A DNA stretch of 63,994 nucleotides, filler included. It is 6 parts of 6 records of this genome, joined end to end, with 100 filler letters (N's around TTAATTAATTAA, not from the genome) between each part and the next. Parts side by side here need not be neighbours in the genome. Positions count along the whole stretch, not along the records: positions 29,640 to 36,165 come from SRR2962707_1829; 5 more parts are not named here. One strand, given 5' to 3'. Below, in pieces: positions 595 to 58,834 of this stretch. The translations under genes and the position numbers were made by a program. Position 1 is the stretch's first letter. Every line of letters starts with the position of its first letter. The notes beneath the pieces are model-generated. The model saw nothing but the letters and a program-made list of their open reading frames with translations. It was not told where the DNA came from and searched no databases.

Positions 595-736
595 TGAATG
601 ACCCCTGTCCGTTTATTCCTGGATTCCGCTTATTCCTTAATGACGCCGTGGCTCGCCGCTGACCGGCATGTGCCCTGGCAAGAGCCTGCTGATCGTTGGC
701 CGGCGAGCGTCCTTCGGCCTGACCCTTTGATCAGCA

Positions 737-752
737 CTGTCTATAAGGACAG
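737..752. promoter_or_regulatory. LexA (SOS) box upstream of recA
   Basis: CTGT-ctataagg-ACAG matches the gammaproteobacterial CTGT-N8-ACAG consensus, 143 bp upstream of the recA start. Confidence 0.85.
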
Positions 753-789
753 CATTATGGACACTGTCCCGCGCCACTGCAACCCCCCC

Positions 790-1269
790 TTATTCGAGGC
801 GGGCCAGCAGCCCTTCCAGGGCGGCGGCGATGGTAGCATGCCGGACCTGCCCACGATCACCGTCGAAGTGGAATCGCTCGGCGCGGGCCCAGTCCGGCTG
901 CTGCGCCCAGGCGATCCACACCGTGCCCACCGGCTTATCGGCGCTGCCGCCGCCGGGCCCCGCCACGCCGCTCACCGCCACCGCCAAATCCGCCCGGGAA
1001 CGCCCCAACGCGCCCCGGGCCATGGCCAGGACGGTCTGTTCACTGACCGCGCCGGCGCTGGCCAGAATCGCTTCCGAGACACCCAGCATGCTCTGCTTGG
1101 CCTCGTTGGAGTAAGTGACGAAGCCGCATTCGAACCAGTCCGAGGATCCGGCCAGCTCCGTCATTTCGCGGGCGATGCCGCCGCCGGTGCAGGACTCGGC
1201 GGTGGCCACGCGCAGGCCCCGTTCGCGCAGGGTGTCGGCCAATGCAGTGACCTGCTCGGGTATGGTCAT
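790..1269 (-). CDS. cinA: CinA/PncC nicotinamide-nucleotide amidohydrolase
   Basis: TAESCTGG, GFVTYSNEAK and GAVSE motifs; canonical position upstream of recA. Confidence 0.95.
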   Translation of the reverse strand: MTIPEQVTALADTLRERGLRVATAESCTGGGIAREMTELAGSSDWFECGFVTYSNEAKQSMLGVSEAILASAGAVSEQTVLAMARGALGRSRADLAVAVSGVAGPGGGSADKPVGTVWIAWAQQPDWARAERFHFDGDRGQVRHATIAAALEGLLARLE

Positions 1270-1468
1270 GGTGACTCCTGATGTTCAGAGAAGATCAAAA
1301 AAATCGCCATCCATGATGGCGGACTTTACCGACGCTGCCCACCGGTGATCCAGCAAACCGGCCACCGGTTCACGGACTGGCGCCCCGAAACCGAAGGGAA
1401 ACACAGGGCATCCTTCCATCGGCTTTGTTACTCTGGGCCGTAAGTAGCCCCTGGCCTTCGGAGTCATC

Positions 1469-1705
1469 ATGAAAAAGCTCAAGAATGAGAAGGAATGGGT
1501 CAAGAAAGCCATCGCACTCGGCATGGAGTACGGCGAGAAGCGGGGCGTGGTCGAGTTCGAGCCCACCGATTCGGCGGCACTGAAGCTGGAGTACATTTAC
1601 CGCCTGCTGGTTCATGACAAGGTCATCCAGCCACTGCCGGAAGATCAGGTTTCCCAGCAGTCGATCCAGCATAAGCTGGCGATCTGGGCGTCGAAACAGC
1701 CGTAG
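1469..1705 (+). CDS. Small conserved hypothetical protein (DUF5062-like)
   Basis: 78 aa, MKKLKNE...IYRLLVHDKVIQPLP...HKLAIW; GGAG RBS upstream. Confidence 0.7.
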   Translation: MKKLKNEKEWVKKAIALGMEYGEKRGVVEFEPTDSAALKLEYIYRLLVHDKVIQPLPEDQVSQQSIQHKLAIWASKQP

Positions 1706-1736
1706 CCCCACTGCCCTCTCTACCGATACAGAGGCG

Positions 1737-3134
1737 TCACTGATACAGACGCATCATGACCCGGGCGTGTTCCCGTATCAGCGCCGCGGGTTCCGTGCCA
1801 AGCAGTTGGCCATCCCGAACCCGCATTCGGCCATTGACCATGACCTGACTGGCCAGAAAGGGCCCGCACATTACCAGCGCCGCCAGCGGGTCCCGCTGCG
1901 CGCCGGCGAAGGACAGGTGATTCATATCCACCGCCACCCAGTCCGCGCTCATCCCCGGTGCCAGATGACCGATGTCATCCCGGCCCAGCAAGCGGGCGCC
2001 GCCACGGGTGGCCAGGATCAGTGCTTCCCGGGCCGACAGCGCCCCAGGATCACCGCCGAATCCGCCCCGCCCGCCCGGCGCTTCCGAACGGTAACGGGCC
2101 GGCGCCACCCGCTGCAGCATCATCGCCATGCGCGCCTCCAGGAACAGATTACTGGAATCGTTGGAGGCGGAACCGTCCACCCCCAGCCCCACCGGCACCC
2201 CGGCGTCCAGCAACTGGCGCACCTTGGCGATGCCCTGCCCGCAGCGCATGTTGGCGCTGGGGCAGTGGGCGATACCGGTGCCGGTGCGGGCCAGCAGCGC
2301 GATCTCCTCGTCGTCGAGGAAGATACCGTGGGCGAACCATACATCCTCACCGAGCCATTCCACCGACGCCGCGAACGCCACCGAACGCATGCCGTACTGG
2401 GCCAGGCAGTAGTCCTCCTCATCCAGCTCCTCGGCCAGGTGGCAATGCAGACGCACGCCCTGGTGGCGCCGGGCCAGCCGGGCGGCGTCCCGCATCAGTT
2501 CCGGTGTCACCGAGAACGGCGAGCACGGCGCCAGTACCAGGCGCAGCATCGAGTGGCGGCCGGCATCGTGGTAACGGCGGATCAGACGTTCCGCGTCACA
2601 CAGAATGTGGTCTTCCTTCTCCACACAATTGTCCGGCGGCAAACCACCCTGGCTTTGCCCCCGCGACATGGCGCCCCGGGCGGCGTGGAAGCGGATGCCC
2701 ATCTCCCCGGCGGCCTGGATCTGACTGTCCAGGCGGGCGCCGTTGGGCAACATATAAAGATGGTCGGCGGCGGTGGTGCAGCCTGAGAGCAACAGTTCCG
2801 CCATGGCCACCTTGCTGCTGAGGTAGATCGCCTCGTCGTCCAGCCGCGCCCAGATCGGGTAAAGCGTATTGAGCCAGGGGAACAGCGGGTCGTCCTGGGC
2901 CATCACCCGGGTGAAATTCTGATACATGTGGTGGTGGGTGTTCACCATTCCGGGCATCACCACATGGCCACTCAGGTCCAGGGTCTCGTCCACCGGAAGG
3001 TCTGGTTTCTCCGTGCGCGGCCCGGCCCACAGAATCTGGTTGTCACGGATCAGCATGGCGGCGTCACGCCACTCGTGGTGCTGATCATCGAAGGTTGCCA
3101 GGTAGTCGATACGGTCGATCAATAAGGTTGTCAT
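1737..3134 (-). CDS. 8-oxoguanine deaminase family amidohydrolase
   Basis: NTHHHMYQ metal motif, PCSPFS and DGSASN motifs, HCPSANM. Confidence 0.85.
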   Translation of the reverse strand: MTTLLIDRIDYLATFDDQHHEWRDAAMLIRDNQILWAGPRTEKPDLPVDETLDLSGHVVMPGMVNTHHHMYQNFTRVMAQDDPLFPWLNTLYPIWARLDDEAIYLSSKVAMAELLLSGCTTAADHLYMLPNGARLDSQIQAAGEMGIRFHAARGAMSRGQSQGGLPPDNCVEKEDHILCDAERLIRRYHDAGRHSMLRLVLAPCSPFSVTPELMRDAARLARRHQGVRLHCHLAEELDEEDYCLAQYGMRSVAFAASVEWLGEDVWFAHGIFLDDEEIALLARTGTGIAHCPSANMRCGQGIAKVRQLLDAGVPVGLGVDGSASNDSSNLFLEARMAMMLQRVAPARYRSEAPGGRGGFGGDPGALSAREALILATRGGARLLGRDDIGHLAPGMSADWVAVDMNHLSFAGAQRDPLAALVMCGPFLASQVMVNGRMRVRDGQLLGTEPAALIREHARVMMRLYQ

Positions 3135-3320
3135 TGGTCACTCCGAAAACGCGGAAAAGGAAAAAGCAAAAGCGCGATTTCGGAGCGGATCAGAACAACT
3201 GGTGAGCAAAAGCGGTGCGTTGCCAGAACGGCCGGAACGGCAAAGCGCGTTGCCGGCGCACGCCGACCACGGGGTTTTTCCTCATACCCTGCCCTCCTGA
3301 TGTTCTATGACCATCTCGCC

Positions 3321-3378
3321 ATTCGCTGGCAAGCCAGCTTGCTGCGAGGCCGCTGTGGGAGCCGCCCTGGCGGCGAAT
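3321..3378. repeat. REP-like palindromic doublet
   Basis: GTGGGAGCCGCCCTGGCGGCGAAT (within 3349-3378) plus a degenerate inverted copy ATTCGCTGGCAAGCCAGCTT at 3321-3340. Confidence 0.65.
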
Positions 3379-3563
3379 ACGGACCACGCTAAGAGGCGAT
3401 GCAAATACAGCGCCAGCTTGGCCAGCTTAAATGGTGACGATGAAGCCAGCGCGGCAAAACACCGCAGTGAGTCCCATCCCCCTCGATGCTAGCCTCTGCG
3501 CCGACTTTACCGCCGTGCTTGGTGGTCGATGGAGCGCTGGGTACTGACTTCTTGGATGGGATC

Positions 3564-5642
3564 ATGACGACGCCTTTTCTCTCTTCTTTCTCTTCTTCTG
3601 TCTCTGCATTACGCCTGATTCAACGACGGAGCCTTTGGGGCCCGGCTCTGCTAGGCGGGCTGCTTCCTTTCTCCGCTCCGGCGCTGGCCGAGGACGAACA
3701 ACCCCCGGCCCTGCTGGCCCCGGTGGTGGTCACCGGCGTGGCGCCCAGTTCCGGACCGGTGATCGAGGCCAACCCCAAACAGCCGCGCCAGCCGGTGCCG
3801 GCCAGCGACGCCACCGACTATCTCAAGACCATCCCCGGTTTCTCCGCCATCCGCAGCGGCGGCAGCAATGGCGACCCGGTACTGCGCGGGCAGTTTGGTT
3901 CGCGCCTGAATCTGCTGGTGGACGGCGGCCAGATGATCGGCGCCTGCCCCAACCGCATGGACGCCCCCAGCTCCTACATCGCCCCGGAAAACTACGACAA
4001 ACTCACCGTGATCAAAGGGCCGCAGAGCGTGCAGTGGGGCCCCGGCGCCTCCGCCGGCACCGTGCTGTTCGAGCGTGACCCGCAATACTTCAGCGAAGCG
4101 GACGCCCTGGTGGACGCCCAATGGCTGCTGGGCTCCCACGGCCGCAACGACCAGCGCATCGACGCCACCCTCGGCAACCCGCTGGGCTACCTGCGCCTCT
4201 CCGGCAACAACGCCCGCGCCGACGACTATAAGGACGGCAACGGCGACCGCGTGCCCTCACGCTGGAAGAAATGGAACAGCGACGTGGTGCTCGGCTGGAC
4301 GCCCAACGCCGACAGCGTCATCGAACTGAGCGCCGGCAAGGGCGACGGCGAAGCCCGCTACGCCGGCCGTGGCATGGACGGCAGCCAGTTCAAACGGGAA
4401 AGCCTGGGGATGCGCTTTGAATTCCGTAATCTGGGTGGCGTGCTCGATCAAATCGACGGCCGCGTCTACTACAACTACGCCGACCACGTGATGGACAACT
4501 ACAGCCTGCGCACCCCGTCCGGCACCGGCATGATGGCCGGCCCCATGGCCTCCAACGTGGACCGACGCACCCTCGGCGGGCGCTTCAAACTCACCTGGCG
4601 CGGTCACGGCTGGGAAGCGCTGGCCGGCGTCGACGCCCAATCCAGCGAACACCGCAAACGCAGCGCCATGGGCGTGGACGCCTATCGAGGCAAAGCCTGG
4701 GACAAAGACGCGGACTTCCACCAGTACGGTGCCTTCACCGAAGTCACCCGTGCCGTCACCGACAACGGCCGCATCGTCGCCGGCGCCCGCCTGGACCGCA
4801 ACGAAGTACGCGACTTCCGCGACGCCGCCGACAGCGCCACCGCCGGCGACACCCGCAGCGACACCCTGCCCAGCGGCTTCCTGCGCTATGAAGCGGACCT
4901 CAGCCAGAACACCAACTACTACGTGGGCATCGGCCACGTGCAGCGCTTCCCCGACTACTGGGAACTGTTCTCCCCCGGTAGCGGCCCGGCCGGATCGCTT
5001 AACGCCTTCGACGCCATCGAACCGGAAAAAACCACCCAACTCGACATCGGCAGCCAATACCGCAACGGCAACCTGGAAGCCTGGACCTCCGCCTATGTGG
5101 GACAGATCAACGACTACATCCTGTTCACCTACCAAAGCGGCATGATGGGCTACAGCACCGACGCCGATAACATCGACGCCCACATCGCCGGCGCCGAACT
5201 CGGCGCCCGCTACCGCTTCACCGACAACCTCAGCGGCGACGCCACCCTCGCCTACGCCTGGGGCCGCAACCGCGACGACAGCGAACCGCTGCCGCAAATG
5301 CCGCCGCTGGAAGCCCGCTTCACCGCCACCTACGAACAAGGCAACTGGAGCGCCGGCGCCCTCTGGCGGCTGGTCGCCGCCCAACACCGCACCGCCAACA
5401 ACAAAGGCAACGTGGTCGGCCGCGACCTCGGCGACAGCAACGGCTTCGGCGTCTTCTCCCTCAACACCGCCTACCGCATCAACCACCAGTTCACCGTCAG
5501 CGCCGGCGTCGACAACCTGTTCGACAAAGCCTACGCCGAACACCTCAACCTGGCCGGCAACGCCGGCTTCGGCTTCCCCGCGGACACACGCATCAACGAA
5601 CCGGGACGGACGTTCTGGGGGAAAGTGGATTGGCGGTTCTGA
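3564..5642 (+). CDS. oprC: TonB-dependent copper receptor (OprC/NosA family)
   Basis: CxxxM motif (GACPNRMD), HxM motif (DHVMDN), Met-rich loops, C-terminal barrel strand ending in F; start at ATG 3564 inferred. Confidence 0.9.
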   Translation: MTTPFLSSFSSSVSALRLIQRRSLWGPALLGGLLPFSAPALAEDEQPPALLAPVVVTGVAPSSGPVIEANPKQPRQPVPASDATDYLKTIPGFSAIRSGGSNGDPVLRGQFGSRLNLLVDGGQMIGACPNRMDAPSSYIAPENYDKLTVIKGPQSVQWGPGASAGTVLFERDPQYFSEADALVDAQWLLGSHGRNDQRIDATLGNPLGYLRLSGNNARADDYKDGNGDRVPSRWKKWNSDVVLGWTPNADSVIELSAGKGDGEARYAGRGMDGSQFKRESLGMRFEFRNLGGVLDQIDGRVYYNYADHVMDNYSLRTPSGTGMMAGPMASNVDRRTLGGRFKLTWRGHGWEALAGVDAQSSEHRKRSAMGVDAYRGKAWDKDADFHQYGAFTEVTRAVTDNGRIVAGARLDRNEVRDFRDAADSATAGDTRSDTLPSGFLRYEADLSQNTNYYVGIGHVQRFPDYWELFSPGSGPAGSLNAFDAIEPEKTTQLDIGSQYRNGNLEAWTSAYVGQINDYILFTYQSGMMGYSTDADNIDAHIAGAELGARYRFTDNLSGDATLAYAWGRNRDDSEPLPQMPPLEARFTATYEQGNWSAGALWRLVAAQHRTANNKGNVVGRDLGDSNGFGVFSLNTAYRINHQFTVSAGVDNLFDKAYAEHLNLAGNAGFGFPADTRINEPGRTFWGKVDWRF

Positions 5643-29539: not shown

Positions 29540-29639
29540 NNNNNNNNNNNNNNNNNNNNNNNNNNNNNNNNNNNNNNNNNNNNTTAATTAATTAANNNNN
29601 NNNNNNNNNNNNNNNNNNNNNNNNNNNNNNNNNNNNNNN
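29540..29639. other. Artificial contig linker
   Basis: N44-TTAATTAATTAA-N44; stops in all six frames; composition changes across it. Confidence 0.98.
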
Positions 29640-29712
29640 GAGAGAGAGAGAGAGAGAGAGAGAGATCACTCACTCACTCGCACACACACTCGCACACACA
29701 CGCACACACTCC
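29640..29712. repeat. (GA)n followed by CACT/CA microsatellites at the contig end
   Basis: Seen directly. Confidence 0.9.
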
Positions 29713-29985
29713 TCCCTCCTCTCTCACGCCTTCCTTCCTCGCGCTTCACTCTCCGTGCCGTGGTTGCAGGGCGTGAAAGTGATTCCTGCTTTTTCGTGCC
29801 AGCAGCATTCTTCTCCCCGTTTATATTTGCCGGTATTTGCTGGTGATTTTAATAAGAGCGATAGCGAAATTAGAAATTAGCGTTGCGCTTTTGATATCTC
29901 TCCGGCACCGATCGTCATCAGCACTGTCCGTCTTTCTGAACGCCCTCGACCTGCTTTGGCGAACCTAAGCCCCCTGTCTGTGGAC

Positions 29986-31245
29986 ATGGCCACGAAGAGC
30001 ACGCGCGCTTCCAGCTGCGTACACCACGCCGACCGTCATTGGTTCAATGTTTTCGTGAAATCCCCGAGTCGCACGCTGACTGTGCGTGTCAACCCGCATG
30101 CGCCGCTGTCAGACGTTTACGACGCGGTGCGCAGAAAGCTTGGCTTGAGCAGCCAACGACAGCGGCGCCATTTCACATTGTACTATCAAGGGCACGCTCT
30201 GTCGCATGATCGCAGTGCTATCGTACACAACATCCAACGCGAGGCGACCCTTACCATGTCGCTGTGCTCGCACAGAGCAAAAGCGGACCTGACAAGGTGG
30301 GCAATGTCAGATTCGATATATCACGAGAGCCTCCAAAATATCATAGGAATGGGCGACTGTGATATGTTGTGTTCACTGCTTCAACAAATTTCTGATTTGA
30401 AGAATCCAGCAAATGATTTCATACGTACAACGTCCAACTACAAGTCAAAGCTCTTGCAGCATACAGATTTCGGCAGACACTGCATAGATGGTGCTACTCC
30501 CATTATGCTCGCTGCTGGCGGTGTTGGTCCAGGAAAAAGTCGTTCAAGAGTGATTCCGGTCCTGCAGACAATGCTCGCGTGGGAGAAAACAAGGGCGCAA
30601 AGTGGCATTGCTCTTTTCGTGCGGCATTGCAAAGCGAGACACTGGATTGACGAAAGAGTCTTGCAATACAGATTGGCGCCACTGTTGCAATCCAGAGGCT
30701 CCTTTGACAGCATTCCGTCTGTAAATGTGCGCCACGCAAGTTCCGACGAAACTGCTTTGATGGTGGCAGCTCGGTTGGGACACTTCGAGGCGGTAAAATT
30801 GCTCCTTGATGCAGGTGCTGCCCCTCTTATGCAGGACTCTGAGGGTCTGACGGCTTTTGACATGGCATCACTTCGTGGGAACCGGCGATGTGCAGAGCAA
30901 CTACATCTGGCATCATGCTCGCCGGTTTGCTCGTTGCGGTTTGCACCATGCCATTCGGCTGACATGTGCCTTTGCCGAAAAAAATTAGAGCAGAAAATTC
31001 AAAAGCAAAAACGGCAATCCAAGACTGCAGAAGAACCAATATCATTAACAAATTTGGACGACACTCGAATTTCCCACCACAGCAACGCTGCTTCAGTGCC
31101 GGCATCCACTCATCGTCACAATCTTAAACCCACATGTTCTGGTGCAGAAGCGGATTCTTTGCCATTCACATCTGCTCATGAGCGCTGCTTGAAGTGGCTT
31201 ATTAGAGCCAAGGCAAGCATTGATGGTCACCCGCAAGGCAAATGA
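29986..31245 (+). CDS. Eukaryotic protein with a ubiquitin-like domain and ankyrin repeats
   Basis: VFVKSPSRTLTVRV...LYYQGHAL...NIQREATL (Ubl); TPIMLAA and TALMVAARLGHFEAVKLLLDAGA...GLTAFDMA (ANK); in-frame introns not excluded. Confidence 0.75.
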   Translation: MATKSTRASSCVHHADRHWFNVFVKSPSRTLTVRVNPHAPLSDVYDAVRRKLGLSSQRQRRHFTLYYQGHALSHDRSAIVHNIQREATLTMSLCSHRAKADLTRWAMSDSIYHESLQNIIGMGDCDMLCSLLQQISDLKNPANDFIRTTSNYKSKLLQHTDFGRHCIDGATPIMLAAGGVGPGKSRSRVIPVLQTMLAWEKTRAQSGIALFVRHCKARHWIDERVLQYRLAPLLQSRGSFDSIPSVNVRHASSDETALMVAARLGHFEAVKLLLDAGAAPLMQDSEGLTAFDMASLRGNRRCAEQLHLASCSPVCSLRFAPCHSADMCLCRKKLEQKIQKQKRQSKTAEEPISLTNLDDTRISHHSNAASVPASTHRHNLKPTCSGAEADSLPFTSAHERCLKWLIRAKASIDGHPQGK

Positions 31246-31456
31246 TCGATGCAGCCCGATCCTGCCGGCTCAGGCTGGCAGAGAGGAGGCTGAGGATTGA
31301 CATGCCCGTTGCACCAGCAAACCTCGACTCCATTTCCAAAGTTATTAAATTATTTCATTATTTTTAAAAAACAGGACTCATTCATGAAGACTCGCATACC
31401 GGACACATGGATTCGTATGGATTCGTAGTCGTTTATGAACGCAGTGCATGGAAGGC

Positions 31457-34400
31457 TCATTCGGGAGCAGGCACGCTCCGTCGAAACAGACTGATGGCAC
31501 ACCGTGGGAGTGCTTTGCGAAGAACATCACCTTCTTCGGCAAGAGCTGCGCGAAGATTAGCAAAAAAACGTGGACAATTTTATACTCGAGCAGGTATTGT
31601 GCAGCGGAAGGTCCAACATAATTTCGTCACGCAACACGAACAGCCGTGTCAATGCACACAAAAAACGCACCTGAAAAATTGTTATCTTCCAGATACAACA
31701 TTTGCAGCGATGTCAATGAATTCAACTCGGATGGTAAGTTACCTACGTGTTATCAAGTCGCAATTTTGAACCTAATCACTGCGCCAGTGCAAAGATATCA
31801 TTCGATCATGCCCACTACGGGCACTTTCACTGAATGCTTACCAGTGAAGCAGTTGTCGTTCAAACCCAAAACCTCAATCTTTGGTAAGCGGCCCAACTCT
31901 GGCGGAAGGGGTCCTATTATCGAGCAATTTCACACCAATTTGTTTGAATCACATCACGGACACCACGACTTCTGCGCGCAATGTAATTGGTACAGAAACC
32001 CATGCAACAGACGTACCCGTGAGTTGGTTGCCAAAGAGCCAAAGGTCACGAAGTTTAGGAAGAGTACACAGTTCAGTAGGTATTTTGCCTGTTGGTCAAT
32101 AAAAAATACACAAGTCCTCACTTCCAAATTCGATTGAGACTGACAATAAAAGTGCCACGCATCGATGAGGTAAATCGATCAATAACTACCTCCTAAGCAG
32201 TTGTCGCGGAGAGACAACTTGGTCAGGTTACGCAAGTGCCCAAGCTCACTGGGAATAGGCCCTGTTAGTTGGTTGCTGTTCAAGCGAAGTTGCTGCAGCT
32301 CATGAAGCAATCCGAGCTCGGAAGGAAGACGACCTGCATGCACCGCCCACAAAAGTCACTGAAATACTTCAGGAACTTGCAACCCCAAAAACAGACCAAA
32401 TAGCGTGCACGCACGAGGCAAACAAACCTCGTAACCCGTTTCTGTTGAGCTCCAACTCGACAACGCAGAGCCGCTGGGACCGAGTACTCGCCAGCGACGT
32501 ACCAGGCGCAAGTAGCACTCCGCGCCACTGACTCAAAGGGGTGTCTGTACACCACCCAGTTCGGTCACGCCAGCCAGATGAAGAAGCATTTCGCGGAATC
32601 CGTGACCAGAGAACATCCGTGGCTGAACTGGTATTTGCGATATCGTGCCCGAAGCCACCCGTTGCACGAAACAACGCCGGCAAAGCATCCCAGGCAGAGT
32701 CAAATTGTGGATGTGCCTCGATAGCAGCTCGGGCCATCTTGGCCCTCGCAAGCTTCTCTCCGTCCCGATTCTGGATTAAAGTTGTGCACAAGGCGTGTGC
32801 AGAGTTACCGGCCACGTCCAAAGAGTTCACGGCATCGCCAATCACGAGCAGTATCCGGGAAAGAAGCCCATCAAATAACCCGTCTTCACGAAGCACTACG
32901 AAGTGGAGTGGGGTGTGTCCAGAGGTGGGGTCCCGACAGTGCCGCACCTGCGGCCCGATTATTTGAATGACTTTCTCAAGGTCCCTGTCATCGACTTCAA
33001 GCGAACGGGCGATGTTGACTGACAAATTGCCCGAGTCAGCACTTGTTGTCCATCGTGGAAAATTAACAAAGTACTGTACCACTTTCTGGTTGTCGTCGCG
33101 GAGCGCATCAAGTAGGAAACTGGTCTCCCGACGCACGCCAGCGTAACTGCATGCATTCGCACACACGCACAGTAATTCAGGAATTCAATCGTGACGTACA
33201 TTGTGATCAAAGTTGTCGCTCGGTATTGGTTCATGACTGCGCTACAAGCAACAATAAAGCAGTAATCTGGCACATTGACGGCACGTACGAGTAAAAATCA
33301 GCCACCAGGTCAGATGCCGATGGCGTCCGCATGATTTTGTACCACATATGACTTTCACGACGCATTAGCAAATACTCTGTCAGCAAAAATTGAACCTCTA
33401 CAATAAATACCACTGGAGTTGCTCTCAAACGTGCGTTGTTGAACAGCGAAAACTGCAGTCGTGTGACCAATTCTATCAGCCGGGGAAGATGTCTAAGCGA
33501 GTCTGGTACTTTCCAGTCCTGAAGTGCAGCAGTTCGAGCCGCAGCGTTGTATTCGACAAGCTCGGCTACGGGTAGTGACGGTGGTCCACGCTTGTCATCC
33601 GCGTGCCGGTCGTCAGCTAAGTGATCATACGAGAGCAGAACATTCTGTCCAGAAGCATCGAATCCACGCACTGTGCCTTTGCGACGGCCGAACCAAAGGT
33701 TTTCTTTGTCGACCACAACGAGCTCTCCGACTCCTAGAAAGCGAGGCAGGAATCCGGAGGCATCCGCATCGATGAGATCACCCCAGGTCAACGGAAGCTC
33801 TTGACGGAAGTTTGCCAAGAGTGACCGATACCTGGCAGAATATGGAACGCAGACAATTTGTTTCGGCTTAGGATAAAAAAACGAGGACAGCAATCAGCAC
33901 TCAAGACATTTCGTTCAAGTTGGCAATGAAGGCATACCCATAGCTTTCTGTGAGCGCGTTGAAGCTTCGCCGGAAGTTGTTCTTGGCTCGAACGCAGTGA
34001 AGGCCACGGCTTGAGCATGCATGGAAACATTCAACTAAGTTCTTAGGCTCCTCAAAAATGAGTGCTGCTCGGGCAGTGTCCAAGTTTGCAGCAGCCTTCG
34101 GTTCTGGCTCGTTTACGTGATCGCGGTGCAATTTGGCTGCCATTCTCACACAAGTCTTTGGTGGTGCTGCATGCCATTGCCCGTTGTGTGTCGCAGCAAG
34201 CTCTTTTGCGGCGCCTTGGAAGAAGGGATCAAACAACCGGGCTAAGTACCTGCAATATCAACAAAGTATGGCGTTGAATTTCGATCATCAAGCACTCGTC
34301 AACCCAGTATTTCAGGTGGCAAATGGACGACAAAGATTTCCGAAAGTGTTCGGAAGTCCACGGAAGCGGTCAGCTTGAGAGCGGCACCTCAGTGCACACG

Positions 34401-35950
34401 TACTCTAAAATCACGAGAAATTCGCTGTCGTGAGGTTGCATCCCGCCCAACGTCGCAGAAAGTGGTTTTTTCAAAGCATGCTTGAAAGGTATGATGCCTT
34501 TTCTGTCCATGCGCGGTTTTTTTGACCGCTTTGGCGGCAGTTTGACGTGCGAAAACTCGCCGCACACCCGCTTGTAAAGTGAGGATTCACCCCGTTTTGC
34601 GATTTCTTCTAACTTCACATGTGCCTGGCTTCGAAGGAACGCATACACATCACGATTGCAGCCGTGAATATTCCAGGTACGATTGCCAATCAACGCCTTC
34701 AAGGATCGTAGAATTAAATCTTCGTCGGCAGCGGACAAAAACGGGTGGGCTCTTCGGGACGGTGACACGATAGGACCATCCACGAGAGAAGTTCGGCAGT
34801 CCAAGACGGCTTCTATGCCCCCATCTACTTTCTCAGCACCATCTGATGCAACCGCACTATGGTCCAAGTCACTGGTGCCATGTGTCGCTGACTCGCGCCC
34901 CCGCCACGGGTTTCCGTCTGCGACACTACCGCCAGCATTCAGACTTCGGTTTTTAGGAGCTACAAAATTTGCTGGTTTCTCGCACAGTAAAATACACAGA
35001 CATGCTTGCACATATCGAGTGATACATGCACGACACTCCGACAGAGACATCCCGATTCGAGGAGACGCAAGCTCTGCGTCTGTGTAGCGGCGAACTTCCC
35101 CATTGGCAGCAGTCAGATTTCCGAGCTGAAGAAAAGCCACAACGACTTCTAAGTCAGCCGTGGTGAGCACACATGTATCGCCAGAAATTCGGGGCAGCGG
35201 CATCGACAAGTCGTCGTGCCGAACAGTGTGTTCAGCTCGTTTTGCGTTTGCAGAACCAACAGTCTTGCGGACAGCAGACATTTTAGGCAAAGAAGCAGAT
35301 GGGAGGAGTGACAGCTTCAAAACTGAGCTTGATTCTCTTGCAGTGGCTCCTTTGGTGCTGAATTCTTGAAAAAGACACTGCATGCGCAAGAGGCGTTCCC
35401 AAATGGCGGGGTCCTGAGCGTAGTGACATCGCGTGGCAACGTTGGCTTGTGGTAAGGAAGCCGCACACACGCGCTGCCAGCCTCCACCTCCATGGTCCAC
35501 TGTCGCGACACTTTGCATGGCAGCGGAGGTACTAGCGCTGCAGGGGAGTGACTCGCGCGAAGCCGTTGGAGAATTGGAACTTCGTCTCGAGTGTTGGCTC
35601 TCTTGAAAGGCGGACACAGGAATTTTAAGGCAGTCGTCACACACAGTGCAGGTGCACATCACTGCAGCATCTTGTTGCTGGACGCTGCGCGGCACAGCCA
35701 CCCAGTGCTCACCAAACTGCTCGTCTTGGACGTGGCATCCGCCAGGAACGTTCCTGTAGGAGCACTTCCAAGATTGCCGTCGCAGCAGATCGGCAGCGCA
35801 ACGGCGAAGTGGCATTCCATGTCGACACTTCCTTCGCTTCTGAGAACTCGACACTCTTGTTGAAGGTGCATGAGCGTGACCATCTGGTGCTGGGGCGTTT
35901 GTGCTCGACTTTGTCTCTGCCTCGCCTTGCTGGCCGTGAGAATTTCCCAT
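31457..35950 (-). CDS. Nine-exon RelA/SpoT-like nucleotidyltransferase-ankyrin-LRR protein (1189 aa)
   Basis: Exons 35950-34404, 34249-33938, 33831-33289, 33146-32428, 32333-32190, 32088-32017, 31913-31842, 31742-31671, 31545-31457. All eight introns are GT-AG and phase-compatible; total 3570 nt. Splicing restores GYRS and continuous LRR repeats. Confidence 0.8.
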
Positions 35951-36165
35951 TCGAAAAAAGATTCTTGACCGTGTGAAGGCAGGGAGCAACAACAACAACA
36001 ACACAAAGCAAGAAAACGCTTTGCTCTGCGGTAATCGCAAATGAACGCCCTCCCACGCGAGCTGAACACCGAAGAAACGAAGGATGGGACGTGGGAGTGG
36101 AAGTGGTGAGGCCACCGTCTTCTCCGCACCTCTCACCACTTCTCACCACAAGAAGAAAAACGACA

Positions 36166-36265
36166 NNNNNNNNNNNNNNNNNNNNNNNNNNNNNNNNNNN
36201 NNNNNNNNNTTAATTAATTAANNNNNNNNNNNNNNNNNNNNNNNNNNNNNNNNNNNNNNNNNNNN
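36166..36265. other. Artificial contig linker
   Basis: N44-TTAATTAATTAA-N44. Confidence 0.98.
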
Positions 36266-36300
36266 CGTTGGTACCCACACGGACGCTCACTCAGCCAGCC

Positions 36301-39300
36301 ATGAGCTCCCAGGCTGTGCGTCAAGGAGTGTGGCGGATGAAGTCTGGGGACATTGTGGACGGGTCAAAACCTTACTTTTACAACGTGGAGACAGGCGAGA
36401 CGGCGTGGGAGCTGCCGCCACCTGTGAAGCGGGCCCGCGAGCAGCTGCTGAACTACTTGCAGAAGATCGACTTGTTCAAGGTGCTCGACTGGACGCAGCT
36501 GAATGAGGTGGCAGATGCTCTGCGAATGGAATCGTTTGCCCCTGAATCCACGATCATTCGTGAGAACGAGGAGGGCGACACGTTTTATTTGATTCACAAA
36601 GGGAAGGTGGAGGTGTACAAGGGCGACTCGTTTGTCGTCACGTTGAAGCAGGGAGCTTTTTTTGGCGAGCAGGCATTGCTGACGAAGTCCCGCCGGAATG
36701 CCACCATCAAAGTATGATTGTCATTTGAATCGGAATTTTGCGAACGCATGTGTGAGGGTGCAAGCTTGGCTGGCACGCATGTTCGGTGTTGTTGCACAGT
36801 GATTGGCCGGCGGAGCTGTTTCCTTGGCATGGCGTGCTTGACGTGCTGTGTCGCTTGTTGTTTTCTCGCTTGCCGGCGGTGCAGACTCCGAAAAATGAAT
36901 CGACGTCCTGCCTGCTCATGGACCGATCACACTTTGAGCAACTTCTCGGCCCACTTGCTCAGCTCATGAATGCCGTGAATTCAAAGGTTTGGTGTGCTTC
37001 TTGGTATTGGTGATAGTTGACTGACCGTTCTGCAAATGCAGTGCCCGATGCCAGGAGCTGATTTTCTTTTTCAAACGTTTGCCTGGCGACAGCGTGAGGC
37101 ATTGCGCCGGCAACAAAACTCGTCGCGAAAGCTTCGAAAGCGAATGATGCACTTGGAACGCATGATGAACCCGAAGCTTGCTGCAGAGTTAGAGGTTCAG
37201 CGCCTGGCAGATGACCGTGGTATATCCACTGCGCAAGCAGAGGCAGTATTTCGAAAAAAAGAGGTGCAAAGGCGTCGATCGATACAAGAAGGGTTGTCAA
37301 AAGGCAATGTACGTTCATCCTCCGTGTCCCCGCTGCCGTATCGGCTGTTGATGTGGGTTATGTGACAGTTTACCCCCACGACTGTACATACTGCCGTAGA
37401 TCCGCCACGGCACATCTCAGTTTCATGATGAATTTGAAGATGCCGGGCCGCATGAGGAAAGCGGAGGCGCCAATTTCAACGAACCTTTGTTGAAATGGTC
37501 ACACTTGTGGCAGCCCAAGTGAGTCAAAATCAAGGCCGTTTGCATGTGCCGACGCATGGATATATGGCAAGCATGTCACGTACATGACGTTTGATGTGCG
37601 ATCGCTGGATTTTTGAAATTGGGGCAGGTGGGAAAATCGCGCAAAGTTGTTAGCAATGCGCCACATGCAATTTTCGAGGCTGGAAATTCAGGCAGTGCTT
37701 GGCAAGCATCGTGGCCACGCTGGCATGGCGAGTTGCTTGCTTGTTGCCCATTTTTTTCGTTTCGTTGTGATAGCACGTGTGTGTAAACAACCGAGTTTAT
37801 TGTGCCCAGGCAACATTGGAACTGGAGTCCCTCGCCGCGATCGAGGAGGTGCAGTGCTGATTGTTGCCTTGCCCCGCTATTTTGTTCCGTCGGTCATTCT
37901 CAAGTAGCCTAATGAATCTCGACTTGGTGCACTCACAGATCCGAGCGTCTGGGCGTGATTCGTTTTTTACGTTGGATCAAGAATCGGCTCGACGGCATCA
38001 AGCGCTTGCAGTCAAGCAGGTTGGTTGGTTGCTTGGGAAACGCATTGCCACGCGGTGATTTTTACAAGAACTTGCATGAGGACGTCGCTCATTTTCCGCA
38101 CACGTGATTTTTTCGTTCAGGGCTTGAAAAAGCGTAAGATGCGCAAACGTGGTCAAAATCAAGGCCAAGGGACGCCTGGTAGCAGTACGCGTAGCAGCCC
38201 TCGTCGAGGAAGACGAGGTAGCCGCAGTCGTAGTCACAGCCGTAGTCACAGTCGTAGTCACAGTCGTAGTCACAGTCGCAGAGCGTCCAGCGTCTCAGGA
38301 CTGGCAGGCAATAGTATGGCCAGCATTATCAATCAAAATCGTTTTTTAAGCACCATGATAAAGAGTGCCCACCGAGCGCGGGAGAGGGTAAGCATCGACA
38401 AGACACACACCCCAAGCACTTTGTGCACCGTTTTCGCTTTGATGGCATTGGAGTATATTCAGGCCGGATCGGTTTTGCGAACTTTGACCTTTTCAGGTTC
38501 GACGGGCTTCGCAGGAATACCCGGACCAGCTGCACATCCACAACGGGACAAAACTTGAACTACTGACCACCAGCAACGAAACGGATGCAAAAGATGGCAG
38601 AGGCGGTGGACTGCCCCCGACGCCTTCCCGACGCCTGGAACGGTCGTTAATGGGCATTGCAGCAATTCGGAGAGCAAGTGGAAAAACTCTAGTTGCGCCA
38701 CCGCCTCCGCTGGCAGACGACAATTCTAGGTCCGTGCACTCCTACGTTCACCGCTACATGCACACTGAAAATGTCAGGTTTGCTATCGCCTCTTTTTGTT
38801 GCTTATTGGTGTCTTGTATGCCATGAATTGTGGGGTTAGGGAACTGGCACAACCAGGGCTGTCGCCGCAAGGAAGTGCGCGGACACGCAGCCTGAGGAAT
38901 GTGCCTTCGTCGCTTAGAAAGGTATGTGGCTATGTGCGGCTTTGCTCGTTGATGCTGGGATGTCTGAAATAATTGATTTCACCAGACTGTGTTTCACGCA
39001 TTGTGGCTTACTGTAGGCAAGCATGTTTGGCAAGTTAAGTGGGGGTGCAAGACGGCAATTCCAAAAGTCGTATGATCAAGGTGCGCCCGCCCCGGCCTGA
39101 AGACCCGAGATCCCGGTTGCGTAACACGCGCGATGGCGATGCTCACTTAAACCTGTTGATTTCTGTATTGGTTCTTTTAGGGCTTAAAACAAATGCTGAG
39201 CGATCCGTGTCACTTCTGCCACCTCCGCGAATTGGTAAGTTTTAGTGAGTTGCTGGCTATTGGTGATTGTTTCTTGCTGCCAATTTAGCTGATTCATTGG

Positions 39301-42620: not shown

Positions 42621-42720
42621 NNNNNNNNNNNNNNNNNNNNNNNNNNNNNNNNNNNNNNNNNNNNTTAATTAATTAANNNNNNNNNNNNNNNNNNNNNNNN
42701 NNNNNNNNNNNNNNNNNNNN
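42621..42720. other. Artificial contig linker
   Basis: N44-TTAATTAATTAA-N44, preceded by a poly-A run at 42597-42620. Confidence 0.98.
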
Positions 42721-50740: not shown

Positions 50741-50840
50741 NNNNNNNNNNNNNNNNNNNNNNNNNNNNNNNNNNNNNNNNNNNNTTAATTAATTAANNNN
50801 NNNNNNNNNNNNNNNNNNNNNNNNNNNNNNNNNNNNNNNN
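50741..50840. other. Artificial contig linker
   Basis: N44-TTAATTAATTAA-N44. Confidence 0.98.
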
Positions 50841-58734: not shown

Positions 58735-58834
58735 NNNNNNNNNNNNNNNNNNNNNNNNNNNNNNNNNNNNNNNNNNNNTTAATTAATTAANNNNNNNNNN
58801 NNNNNNNNNNNNNNNNNNNNNNNNNNNNNNNNNN
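58735..58834. other. Artificial contig linker
   Basis: N44-TTAATTAATTAA-N44. Confidence 0.98.

Follow-up and report, generated by a model that had tools for sequence, protein, structure and literature searches.

Here we describe a gene on the minus strand of a 63,994-base stretch of DNA (hereafter the window), at positions 31457-35950, which encodes an 1189-residue protein that combines an enzyme-like core domain with ankyrin-like repeats and leucine-rich repeats (LRRs). The gene is real and expressed, nuclear and from a protist, and its core domain is a new, unnamed eukaryotic branch of the RelA/SpoT homologue (RSH) fold in a new architecture. We favor the reading, to which we give a probability of roughly 55%, that the product is a regulated RSH-type pyrophosphokinase with ATP as donor and a purine nucleotide, preferentially an adenine one, as acceptor, controlled by its ankyrin-LRR part and by a membrane anchor. 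All of the elements listed in an earlier interpretation of this DNA made from its letters only (the sequence-only reading), a Cys/His cluster included, were found at the positions given there.

To establish the structure of the gene, we combined the exon model with transcript-derived and orthologous sequences. On the minus strand, coding sequence is distributed over four large open reading frame (ORF) pieces (34370-36142, 33901-34257, 33231-33893, and 32369-33184) and five small LRR pieces, which a nine-exon model joins into 3570 nt coding for 1189 residues plus a stop codon, with canonical GT-AG splice-site contexts at all eight introns. A word-indexed protein search with exon 3 as query, in which 7990 candidates were scored, found two proteins. 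P0001 (EukProt INCI3251.6.p1) is a transcript-derived ORF (TransDecoder) of 694 residues with 100% identity to the window gene, and P0002 is a 953-residue protein with 69% identity encoded by a metagenome contig, L031. In addition, one 3893-nt contig from a public run presumed to be RNA (X1) aligned on 31400-36100 with all nine exons joined. The exons and their support are as follows.

34404-35950, minus strand: exon 1, ATG at 35950-35948, coding for residues 1-515 and 2 further nt, with a GTACGT donor next to it; an X1 piece covering 34400-36100 is joined to exon 2, and P0002 aligns over 35764-34394
33938-34249, minus strand: exon 2, with Syn1-, Syn2-, and Syn3a-like synthetase motifs; P0001 threading, flanking X1 skips of 154 and 106 nt
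33289-33831, minus strand: exon 3, which completes the GYRS motif and carries an insertion module, Syn4, and Syn5; P0001 threading, X1
32428-33146, minus strand: exon 4, end of the enzyme-like domain, ankyrin-like helical repeats, and LRR N-cap; P0001, X1
32190-32333, minus strand: exon 5, LRR units 1 and 2; P0001, X1, comparison with L031
32017-32088, minus strand: exon 6, LRR unit 3; P0001, X1, comparison with L031
31842-31913, minus strand: exon 7, LRR unit 4; P0001, X1, comparison with L031
31671-31742, minus strand: exon 8, LRR unit 5, with a GTGCGT donor from 31670; model, X1
31457-31545, minus strand: exon 9, a 28-residue C-terminal tail plus stop (31457-31459); model, 125-nt X1 skip, L031

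P0001 could be threaded through the window letter for letter with seven GT-AG introns, at exon end/start pairs 34404/34249, 33938/33831, 33289/33146, 32428/32333, 32190/32088, 32017/31913, and 31842/31742. The X1 contig skips 154, 106, 142, 94, 101, 103, 99, and 125 nt and otherwise has zero differing letters, and each skip has CT..AC ends on the plus strand, equivalent to GT..AG on the gene strand. The proposed eight introns and 1189 residues are thus borne out, seven of the introns by P0001 and all eight by the X1 contig, with the length exact. Because the X1 contig spans N-terminal, enzyme-like, and LRR exons, the whole nine-exon structure corresponds to one spliced molecule, and the nucleotidyltransferase-like and LRR parts belong to a single gene as had been proposed. 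The threaded P0001 also contains the exon 2/exon 3 junction, in agreement with the prediction that the GYRS motif is formed only by splicing these two exons together. Since the P0001 ORF starts at an internal methionine (window 34510), it is the X1 contig, together with the single open frame of L031, that links the first 480 residues to the rest. Intron 8 (31546-31670) is spliced out in the X1 contig, with its border at 31545/31671, whereas P0001 runs into this intron and ends there. P0001 passes through the exon 8 donor and intron 8 is therefore retained in its ORF; the difference represents either two isoforms with different C-termini or incomplete splicing.

The core domain occupies the middle of the protein, and its features map to the window as follows.

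33134-34510, minus strand: RSH-fold pyrophosphokinase-like domain, residues 481-805, spanning introns 1-3
34132-34164, minus strand: Syn1-like motif
34069-34086, minus strand: Syn2-like motif
33973-33990 and 33822-33939, minus strand: Syn3-like motif, split by intron 2
33417-33770, minus strand: subfamily-specific insertion (about 118 residues) that separates Syn3 from Syn4
33390-33401, minus strand: Syn4 motif
33336-33353, minus strand: Syn5 motif

In order to identify the fold of this domain, we used AlphaFold models and structure searches. The P0001 model had a mean predicted local distance difference test (pLDDT) score of 84.9, with values above 90 over P0001 residues 10-320. Since LRR ectodomains were all that Foldseek returned for the whole P0001 model, we modeled a compact family member, P0024, which is 35% identical to P0001 and matched P0002 at E 2.9e-25. 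Its model (pLDDT 96.6, predicted template modeling score 0.92) shows the same succession of structural elements as that of P0001. When the P0024 model was searched against 350,542 chains of the PDB, 23 of the 24 listed rows were named Rel, SpoT, RelA, SAS, RelP, CapRel, exported alarmone synthetase, or Tas1, and the remaining one had a locus name only. Tas1 was the first row (E 2.2e-3, probability 0.99; probabilities reached 1.00 among those listed), and the exported alarmone synthetase SaEAS had the highest template modeling (TM) score by target among the listed matches (0.60-0.61). Among the viral models of BFVD there were 5 matches at E <= 1e-3, two of them named RelA/SpoT, and a phage 'Tas1' matched at 1e-2. 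At the sequence level, family profiles searched against 177,635 PDB sequences placed Tas1 (6OX6) on top, with E 0.017 and 0.0049 over the first motif. As leads only, ESM Atlas searches with P0001 residues 28-325 (best score 0.86) reached, at rank 26, a cluster with RelA_SpoT on 17% of its members, and for P0024, among named clusters, 14/30 hits fell in the RelA_SpoT set (best 0.90, 34% share). Together, the models and structure searches make it very probable that the fold of the core domain is of the RSH type.

We then looked at conservation of the putative catalytic residues, using a 65-sequence domain alignment. Lys493 of the first motif, Pro512, Asp519 of motif 2, Arg522 (Asp+3), and Asn552, which follows the motif-3 Lys, are invariant (65/65). 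Glu711 of motif 4 is present in 59/65 sequences, Gln713 in 56/65, and Asn573 of motif 3 in 59/65. This alignment agrees with the earlier assignment of five synthetase motifs in their canonical order and shows the presumed catalytic Asp and Glu to be conserved. Neither an Arg at Asp+5 nor a His at Tyr+4 occurs in any of the members (0/65 for each), and both forms occur in the RelA/SpoT sequences compared. For SaEAS, mutation of D121 is described as inactivating, and R124, K154, N169, E182, and Q184 as residues that bind ATP and are common to Apk1 (PMC12691689). A further source distinguishes an Apk signature, 'RYT' plus 'GxN', from the 'AVR' plus 'SxH' of guanosine-type RSH enzymes (PMC12226406). 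By its D-x-x-R and its Asn instead of His, the core domain family appears to follow the adenosine-pyrophosphokinase signature.

These residues also bear on the idea that the domain has kept an RSH-like fold while its chemistry is different or lost, so that the protein would act as a nucleotide-binding pseudoenzyme, as a scaffold, or in another kind of nucleotidyl transfer. Consistent with this idea, sequence similarity to active RSH enzymes is statistically insignificant, the Asp+5 and post-Gln positions are unlike those of RSH proteins, P0003 has a Glu replacing the motif-4 Gln, and the insertions are long and family-specific. Yet the near-total invariance of Lys, Asp, Arg, Asn, and Glu across 65 diverse members has the look of an active site, and the invariant set matches the ATP-binding residues described for SaEAS and Apk1 in the text cited above; we consider altered or lost chemistry distinctly unlikely.

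A number of results weigh against the assignment of the domain as an RSH-type pyrophosphokinase. Pfam gave nothing at E <= 1 on the four exon translations and no match to the enzyme-like domain at E <= 10 on the spliced P0001 and P0002. The Pfam RelA_SpoT profile (PF04607) recognized 0/65 core-domain family members at E <= 0.01, while the same profile, as a control, was found in 21/21 bacterial genomes. PADLOC had no match for 6/6 proteins, and NCBIfam left the enzyme-like domain unmatched in 6/6. An hhalign comparison of the family with 23 RelA/SpoT sequences was not significant, either with the insertion (probability 0.8%, P 0.07) or after its removal (probability 1.1%, P 0.047). The Tas1 profile match is only 36-37 residues long. 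No Foldseek match in the PDB reached E <= 1e-3, TM-scores ranged from 0.13 to 0.61, many root-mean-square deviations exceeded 10 Å, and the search was made with the relative P0024 rather than with the window's own domain. Residue equivalences were taken from motif alignments instead of structural superposition, and the motif-3 Asn stands at Tyr+6, not at the RSH His position, Tyr+4. Regarding the acceptor, swapping the 'RYT'/'GxN' and 'AVR'/'SxH' signatures left specificity unchanged according to PMC12226406, and these signatures therefore do not predict it. In addition, motifs 3 and 4 are separated in every member by an insertion of 60-140 residues, compared with 13 in SaEAS, and this could remodel the acceptor site.

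The hhalign comparison with RelA/SpoT is a weak test because it used only 23 proteobacterial long RSH sequences, with an effective number of sequences of 2.9. In its non-significant alignment without the insertion, the five motifs are co-linear with those of proteobacterial RelA/SpoT; in global mode hhalign returned nothing. Judged by these sequence comparisons, the core domain family lies outside the reach of PF04607. Accordingly, the RelA/SpoT domain of the sequence-only reading stands as a fold, by the P0024 model and Foldseek, and not as a profile match (Pfam RelA_SpoT 0/65, hhalign about 1%).

The insertion is predicted to form a small beta-rich module with helices (strands at 177-179, 191-197, 203-207, and 225-227 of the P0001 model). 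It is present in P0001-P0005 and much shorter in compact members.

The closest of the known systems is Apk1/Tas1 of Pseudomonas aeruginosa (6OX6), which, like Apk2 of MuF polymorphic toxins, is an adenosine 3'-pyrophosphokinase that makes (p)ppApp. It was the best match in two independent searches (PDB profile and Foldseek), has the same RSH fold and a motif-2 Asp-x-x-Arg, and, by its 'GxN', has an Asn rather than a His in motif 3, although the Asn of our family is at Tyr+6. Sequence identity is about 12%. In contrast to these bacterial or phage secreted toxins of about 200 residues, which have a delivery domain and a cognate immunity protein, the window protein is eukaryotic, intron-bearing, 1189 residues long, and multidomain, with the 60-140-residue insertion between motifs 3 and 4. 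SaEAS from Streptomyces albidoflavus (8VX3) has a D121/R124 spacing equal to the Asp-x-x-Arg of the family, and is described as Sec-exported, single-domain, and promiscuous for A and G acceptors (PMC12691689); the window protein differs in having no signal peptide and in carrying ankyrin and LRR modules. The same paper contains no word starting with 'eukaryot'; its supplementary files list 2,959 Apk1/Tas1 homologues, possibly with eukaryotic members among them. With Apk1/Tas1 and the exported-synthetase branch as nearest relatives, the more plausible product is (p)ppApp rather than (p)ppGpp; the earlier proposal of an alarmone product may thus hold in its adenosine form and less so in its guanosine form.

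CapRel (7ZTB), a fused toxin-antitoxin tRNA pyrophosphokinase, shares the RSH fold and the arrangement, proposed here for the window protein, of a single polypeptide whose C-terminal sensor governs an RSH-type enzyme. It differs in being bacterial and in having a small antitoxin domain as its sensor, its TM-score by target is 0.26, and PADLOC made no such match here. Its presence among the Foldseek matches raises the alternative of a macromolecule pyrophosphokinase, acting for example on the tRNA 3' CCA end like a CapRel-type toxSAS and serving as a regulated translation brake. CapRel structures (7ztb, 9erv) are within the top ten listed Foldseek matches, and the large insertion between motifs 3 and 4 could offer a surface for a large substrate. 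However, these matches are weaker than those to Tas1 and SaEAS (E 3.3e-2 and 5.4e-2, TM by target 0.26-0.28), and the sole sequence-level match is to Tas1, so that we hold such a substrate to be very unlikely.

Eukaryotic RSH proteins known so far are plastid (p)ppGpp synthetases, the hydrolase MESH1, and a few unplaced small synthetases from Dictyostelium, Aspergillus, Gibberella, and two diatoms ('divRel' in Dictyostelium, Aspergillus, and diatoms; PMC3153485). Like the window protein, the plant and algal enzymes and divRel are eukaryotic with an RSH synthetase domain, and the EF-hands of CRSH/Rsh4 described in that survey parallel the EF-hand members of our family. An ordinary organellar (p)ppGpp synthetase of the plant RSH/CRSH kind might be suspected, given that, among eukaryotic RSH proteins, those of plants and algae are the best known and that CRSH/Rsh4 likewise couples a synthetase to EF-hands (PMC3153485). 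Those proteins are, however, recognized by the RelA_SpoT profile, and the plant ones are plastid and (p)ppGpp-making, whereas our family is missed by PF04607 (0/65) and has neither the guanosine-type signature (Arg at Asp+5, His at Tyr+4) nor a leader. HD hydrolase, TGS, and ACT domains had no Pfam match in P0001, P0002, or exon 1, and the N-terminus of the window protein is hydrophilic and begins with Met-Gly, which leaves it without a leader. An organellar synthetase is therefore hardly credible, in line with the earlier statement, now backed by Pfam and hydropathy, that HD hydrolase and plastid leader are absent.

Downstream of the core domain, the protein continues with repeat modules.

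32663-32989, minus strand: ankyrin-like helical repeats, about two plus caps
32332-32572, minus strand: LRR N-terminal cap, spanning intron 4
31544-32331, minus strand: five 24-residue plant-type LRR units, residues 1042-1161, spanning introns 5-8

The five LRRs are solid. Pfam recognized them as LRR_1 (1.4e-13, 48.6 bits against a cut-off of 20.6), LRR_4 (3.7e-12, 46.5 bits against 27), and LRR_8 (1.2e-8, 35 bits against 27), and Foldseek aligned the P0001 model to plant receptor ectodomains with a best E of 8.8e-11. Although model confidence over the N-cap is only 64-77, the model aligned to whole SERK and SOBIR1 ectodomains, cap included, over 157-178 columns with TM by target of 0.7-0.8. 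Pfam, Foldseek, and L031 therefore agree with the five 24-residue LRRs and N-cap first seen in the letters. The 24-residue units and N-cap resemble the plant LRR ectodomains of SERK, SOBIR1, ERL2, and FLS2 (E about 1e-10, 30-35% identity, TM up to 0.80). Unlike these, the window protein has no signal peptide, transmembrane helix, or kinase, which points to a cytosolic use of the plant-type LRR fold. Plant LRR caps have paired cysteines; the window N-cap shows a single Cys. As a separate observation, the N-cap motif alone (P0002 residues 894-944) matches dozens of proteins of 1,000-2,900 residues, with up to 20 stretches per protein (for example in P0014, P0018, and P0023), which suggests that an LRR-cap-like unit is reused in a large class of repeat proteins.

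The ankyrin assignment of the helical repeats is weak. Pfam Ank had no match in P0001 or P0002, and phmmer of P0002 against PDB sequences gave weak designed-ankyrin matches only; the best ankyrin evidence is a designed ankyrin protein that matches the equivalent part of P0002 with E 0.0055 over about 60 residues. The stretch forms paired helices in the P0001 model. The ankyrin repeats are thus less well marked than was first claimed.

To find out which parts of the protein are under constraint, we compared the window gene with its orthologue on L031, an independent 6541-bp contig that has the same domain order. A single open frame of L031 begins with Met-Gly and covers the enzyme-like part, the ankyrin-like part, and the N-cap; five LRR exons and a terminal exon follow, the last of these being identical to that of the window at 12/22 residues. 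Over its positions 691-4600, L031 is without introns at the places of window introns 1-3, while LRR units 1 and 2 are separated by an additional intron, so that introns were turned over within one orthologous gene. Identical residues between the two proteins are distributed as follows; LRR unit 4 was omitted from the count for a one-residue length difference.

First 120 residues: 32/120
Residues 121-400: 81/280
Residues 401-495: 47/95
Enzyme N-half: 94/145
Insertion: 89/130
Enzyme C-half: 34/45
Ankyrin-like part: 73/185
LRR N-cap: 16/40
LRR unit 1: 19/24
LRR unit 2: 16/24
LRR unit 3: 18/24
LRR unit 5: 16/22

In percent, identity is 65-76 for the enzyme core, 68 for the insertion, 67-79 for the LRR units, and 27-29 for the N-terminal 400 residues, and the exposed LRR strand positions are mostly the same in L031 when the alignment is read by eye. 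In a third lineage, P0003/P0153 (38% identical), the Cys/His cluster is missing, and the enzyme, the insertion, the ankyrin-like part, and the motif of the N-cap are all retained.

This pattern is relevant to the suggestion of an immune receptor, in which the LRR and ankyrin parts of an innate-immune or abortive-infection effector would sense a viral or bacterial molecule and release a toxic enzyme that, like Tas1, drains ATP into (p)ppApp, with death or arrest of the infected cell as a result. The nearest solved relatives, Tas1, CapRel, and SaEAS (toxic in the cytoplasm), are toxins or defence proteins; CapRel, as described in PMC12691689, is a fused sensor-toxin switched on by a phage protein; and LRR and ankyrin repeats are common sensor modules. 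However, the LRR units are 67-79% identical and the N-terminal regions 27-29%, the opposite of what is seen for diversifying recognition surfaces, no paralogue of the gene occurs elsewhere within the 64-kb window, and the partners of the core domain across the family are Ca2+, cyclic nucleotide, phosphotyrosine, and kinase modules. A Pfam search of P0001, P0002, and exon 1 likewise gave no NTPase module, whether NACHT, NB-ARC, or another. The description of the protein as like a nucleotide-binding LRR receptor (NLR) fails because the NACHT/NB-ARC module is missing, and of the NLR features only the C-terminal repeat sensor is present. RelA_SpoT has been reported earlier as an N-terminal domain in NLRs from fungi, as mentioned in a preprint (10.1101/2022.03.16.484565), and these are likewise eukaryotic proteins that join an RSH-type domain to repeat modules. 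They differ in their central NACHT/NB-ARC and Pfam-recognizable RelA_SpoT, whereas the window protein is without a nucleotide-binding oligomerization domain and has its enzyme mid-protein. Since the LRR units are as conserved as the enzyme core, a regulated signaling enzyme is favored over a diversifying immune receptor, and we regard the immune effector as unlikely; together with the classical signaling partners of the family, this conservation speaks against the immune-receptor side of the sequence-only reading.

We also examined the N-terminal part of the protein for features that could determine its location.

35930-35950, minus strand: Met-Gly N-terminal motif, residues 1-7, candidate N-myristoylation signal
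35630-35827, minus strand: Cys/His cluster, residues 42-107, candidate zinc-binding module

The rule for N-myristoylation asks for Met-Gly at the start and, at position 6, for a residue that is small or bears a hydroxyl. This pattern, already noted as a candidate signal from the window alone, recurs in L031, P0004/P0158, and P0153, and it makes membrane tethering through N-terminal acylation plausible. No hydrophobic segment was found in the 1189-residue protein (top 19-residue Kyte-Doolittle mean 1.54), nor was a signal peptide, transmembrane segment, or targeting leader seen there. A transmembrane receptor and plastid targeting were also considered, and both were rejected, as there is no hydrophobic segment and no leader. 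Going by its sequence, the protein is probably soluble and anchored to membranes through N-terminal acylation. The positions of the Cys/His cluster are kept in L031 and missing from P0003 and P0153, and the cluster had no family match in Pfam.

On this basis, we propose how the regulated pyrophosphokinase could work; catalysis, donor, acceptor, acylation, and the regulatory role of the ankyrin and LRR parts are all points that we infer. The core domain would bind ATP-Mg through Lys/Arg/Lys of motif 1, Asp-x-x-Arg of motif 2, and Glu-x-Gln of motif 4, and a purine nucleotide would receive the beta-gamma pyrophosphate on its 3'-OH, with adenine acceptors, giving (p)ppApp, likelier than guanine. 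The C-terminal ankyrin-like and LRR modules would bind a conserved protein or ligand and thereby switch the enzyme on or off, a role that in paralogous members may be taken by an N-terminal EF-hand pair, a cyclic nucleotide monophosphate (cNMP) binding domain, SH2, or a kinase. At the membrane, this would produce a nucleotide signal or an ATP drain, either of them regulated.

In order to place the protein in a wider family, we searched P0002 with phmmer against 1.84 billion representatives and obtained 497 proteins at E <= 1e-3, of which 118 had E <= 1e-10 and 15 had E <= 1e-30. Most of the 497 match the N-half of the enzyme, and separate giant repeat proteins match only the N-cap motif. Pfam domains accompanying the core in the 65 members were Ank in 12 (strong), EF-hand in 6, cNMP_binding in 1, SH2 in 1, and LRR in 1 (P0001); in the EF-hand-bearing relatives, the EF-hand pair is N-terminal. 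A family profile search of a 5.8-billion set found 29 proteins, among them transcripts from MMETSP and EukProt as well as one NCBI record, which belongs to the dinoflagellate Effrenium voratum. A protein of this dinoflagellate, P0182 (1151 residues), has a kinase (60-288), an EF-hand pair (505-564), and the enzyme-like domain, a combination that may be a true fusion or may result from merging in the gene model. For ten representatives, the cluster members had no name beyond 'hypothetical protein'. The family profile gave 0 matches in 401 bacterial genomes of one phylum, which is uninformative without a positive control. Full texts that we searched, limited in coverage and excluding supplements, held no description of the family or of the architecture.

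The gene is a transcript-verified entry to a sizeable eukaryotic family that standard annotation leaves blank. Judged by fold and by invariant residues, the family is closest to the adenosine-pyrophosphokinase branch, so far known from bacterial and phage toxins only, and the fusions make it testable whether alarmone-type nucleotides occur in the eukaryotic cytosol as a regulated signal or as a suicide switch. A 2022 review has (p)ppApp as unreported from plants or algae (PMC10107265); our results suggest that some eukaryotes make (p)ppApp-type nucleotides under receptor-like control. If the enzyme is active, it would be a natural case of a toxin fold tamed through fused regulatory domains. 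More tentatively, it is possible that SAR protists (stramenopiles, alveolates, and rhizarians; here a stramenopile-like heterotroph and dinoflagellates at least) have a cytosolic alarmone-type second-messenger system of their own, fed by a dedicated family of Apk/Tas1-like RSH-fold synthetases with (p)ppApp or a related 3'-pyrophosphorylated nucleotide as product, and with members wired to Ca2+ (EF-hand), cyclic nucleotides, phosphotyrosine (SH2), kinases, and, in the present case, an acylated ankyrin-LRR receptor module. Were this so, 'bacterial' toxin chemistry would be a regular eukaryotic signaling currency.

The gene is located on a small eukaryotic contig inside a mixed assembly. The window is made up of six contigs, and the spacers between them, each consisting of 44 N + TTAATTAATTAA + 44 N, lie at the following positions.

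29540-29639: spacer
36166-36265: spacer
42621-42720: spacer
50741-50840: spacer
58735-58834: spacer

GC content across the contigs of the window ranges from 0.38 to 0.69 in 2-kb steps, with a strong contrast among contigs. The contig of the gene (6526 bp, window 29640-36165, GC about 0.50) had no match to a 4.7-Mb bacterial genome (G001). Twelve kb sampled from the first contig (window 2000-14000) matched that genome with 94-97% identity, so the assembly contains at least one bacterium alongside a eukaryote. One other gene was noted on the contig.

29881-31245, plus strand: neighbor gene, a single open frame of 454 codons, convergent with the RSH-like gene

The end of this ORF is about 210 bp away from the stop codon of the RSH-like gene. 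Its product has ankyrin repeats (Pfam Ank, E 1.2e-10), and its N-terminal part is weakly ubiquitin-like (TUG-UBL1 2.4e-4, ubiquitin 2.7e-3, neither reaching the cut-off). No immunity gene was seen adjoining the RSH-like gene, the neighbor being this ubiquitin-like and ankyrin gene. On the next contig, an open frame at 36214-36717 on the plus strand looks, by eye on its translation only, like a WW-type motif with a cyclic-nucleotide-binding domain after it.

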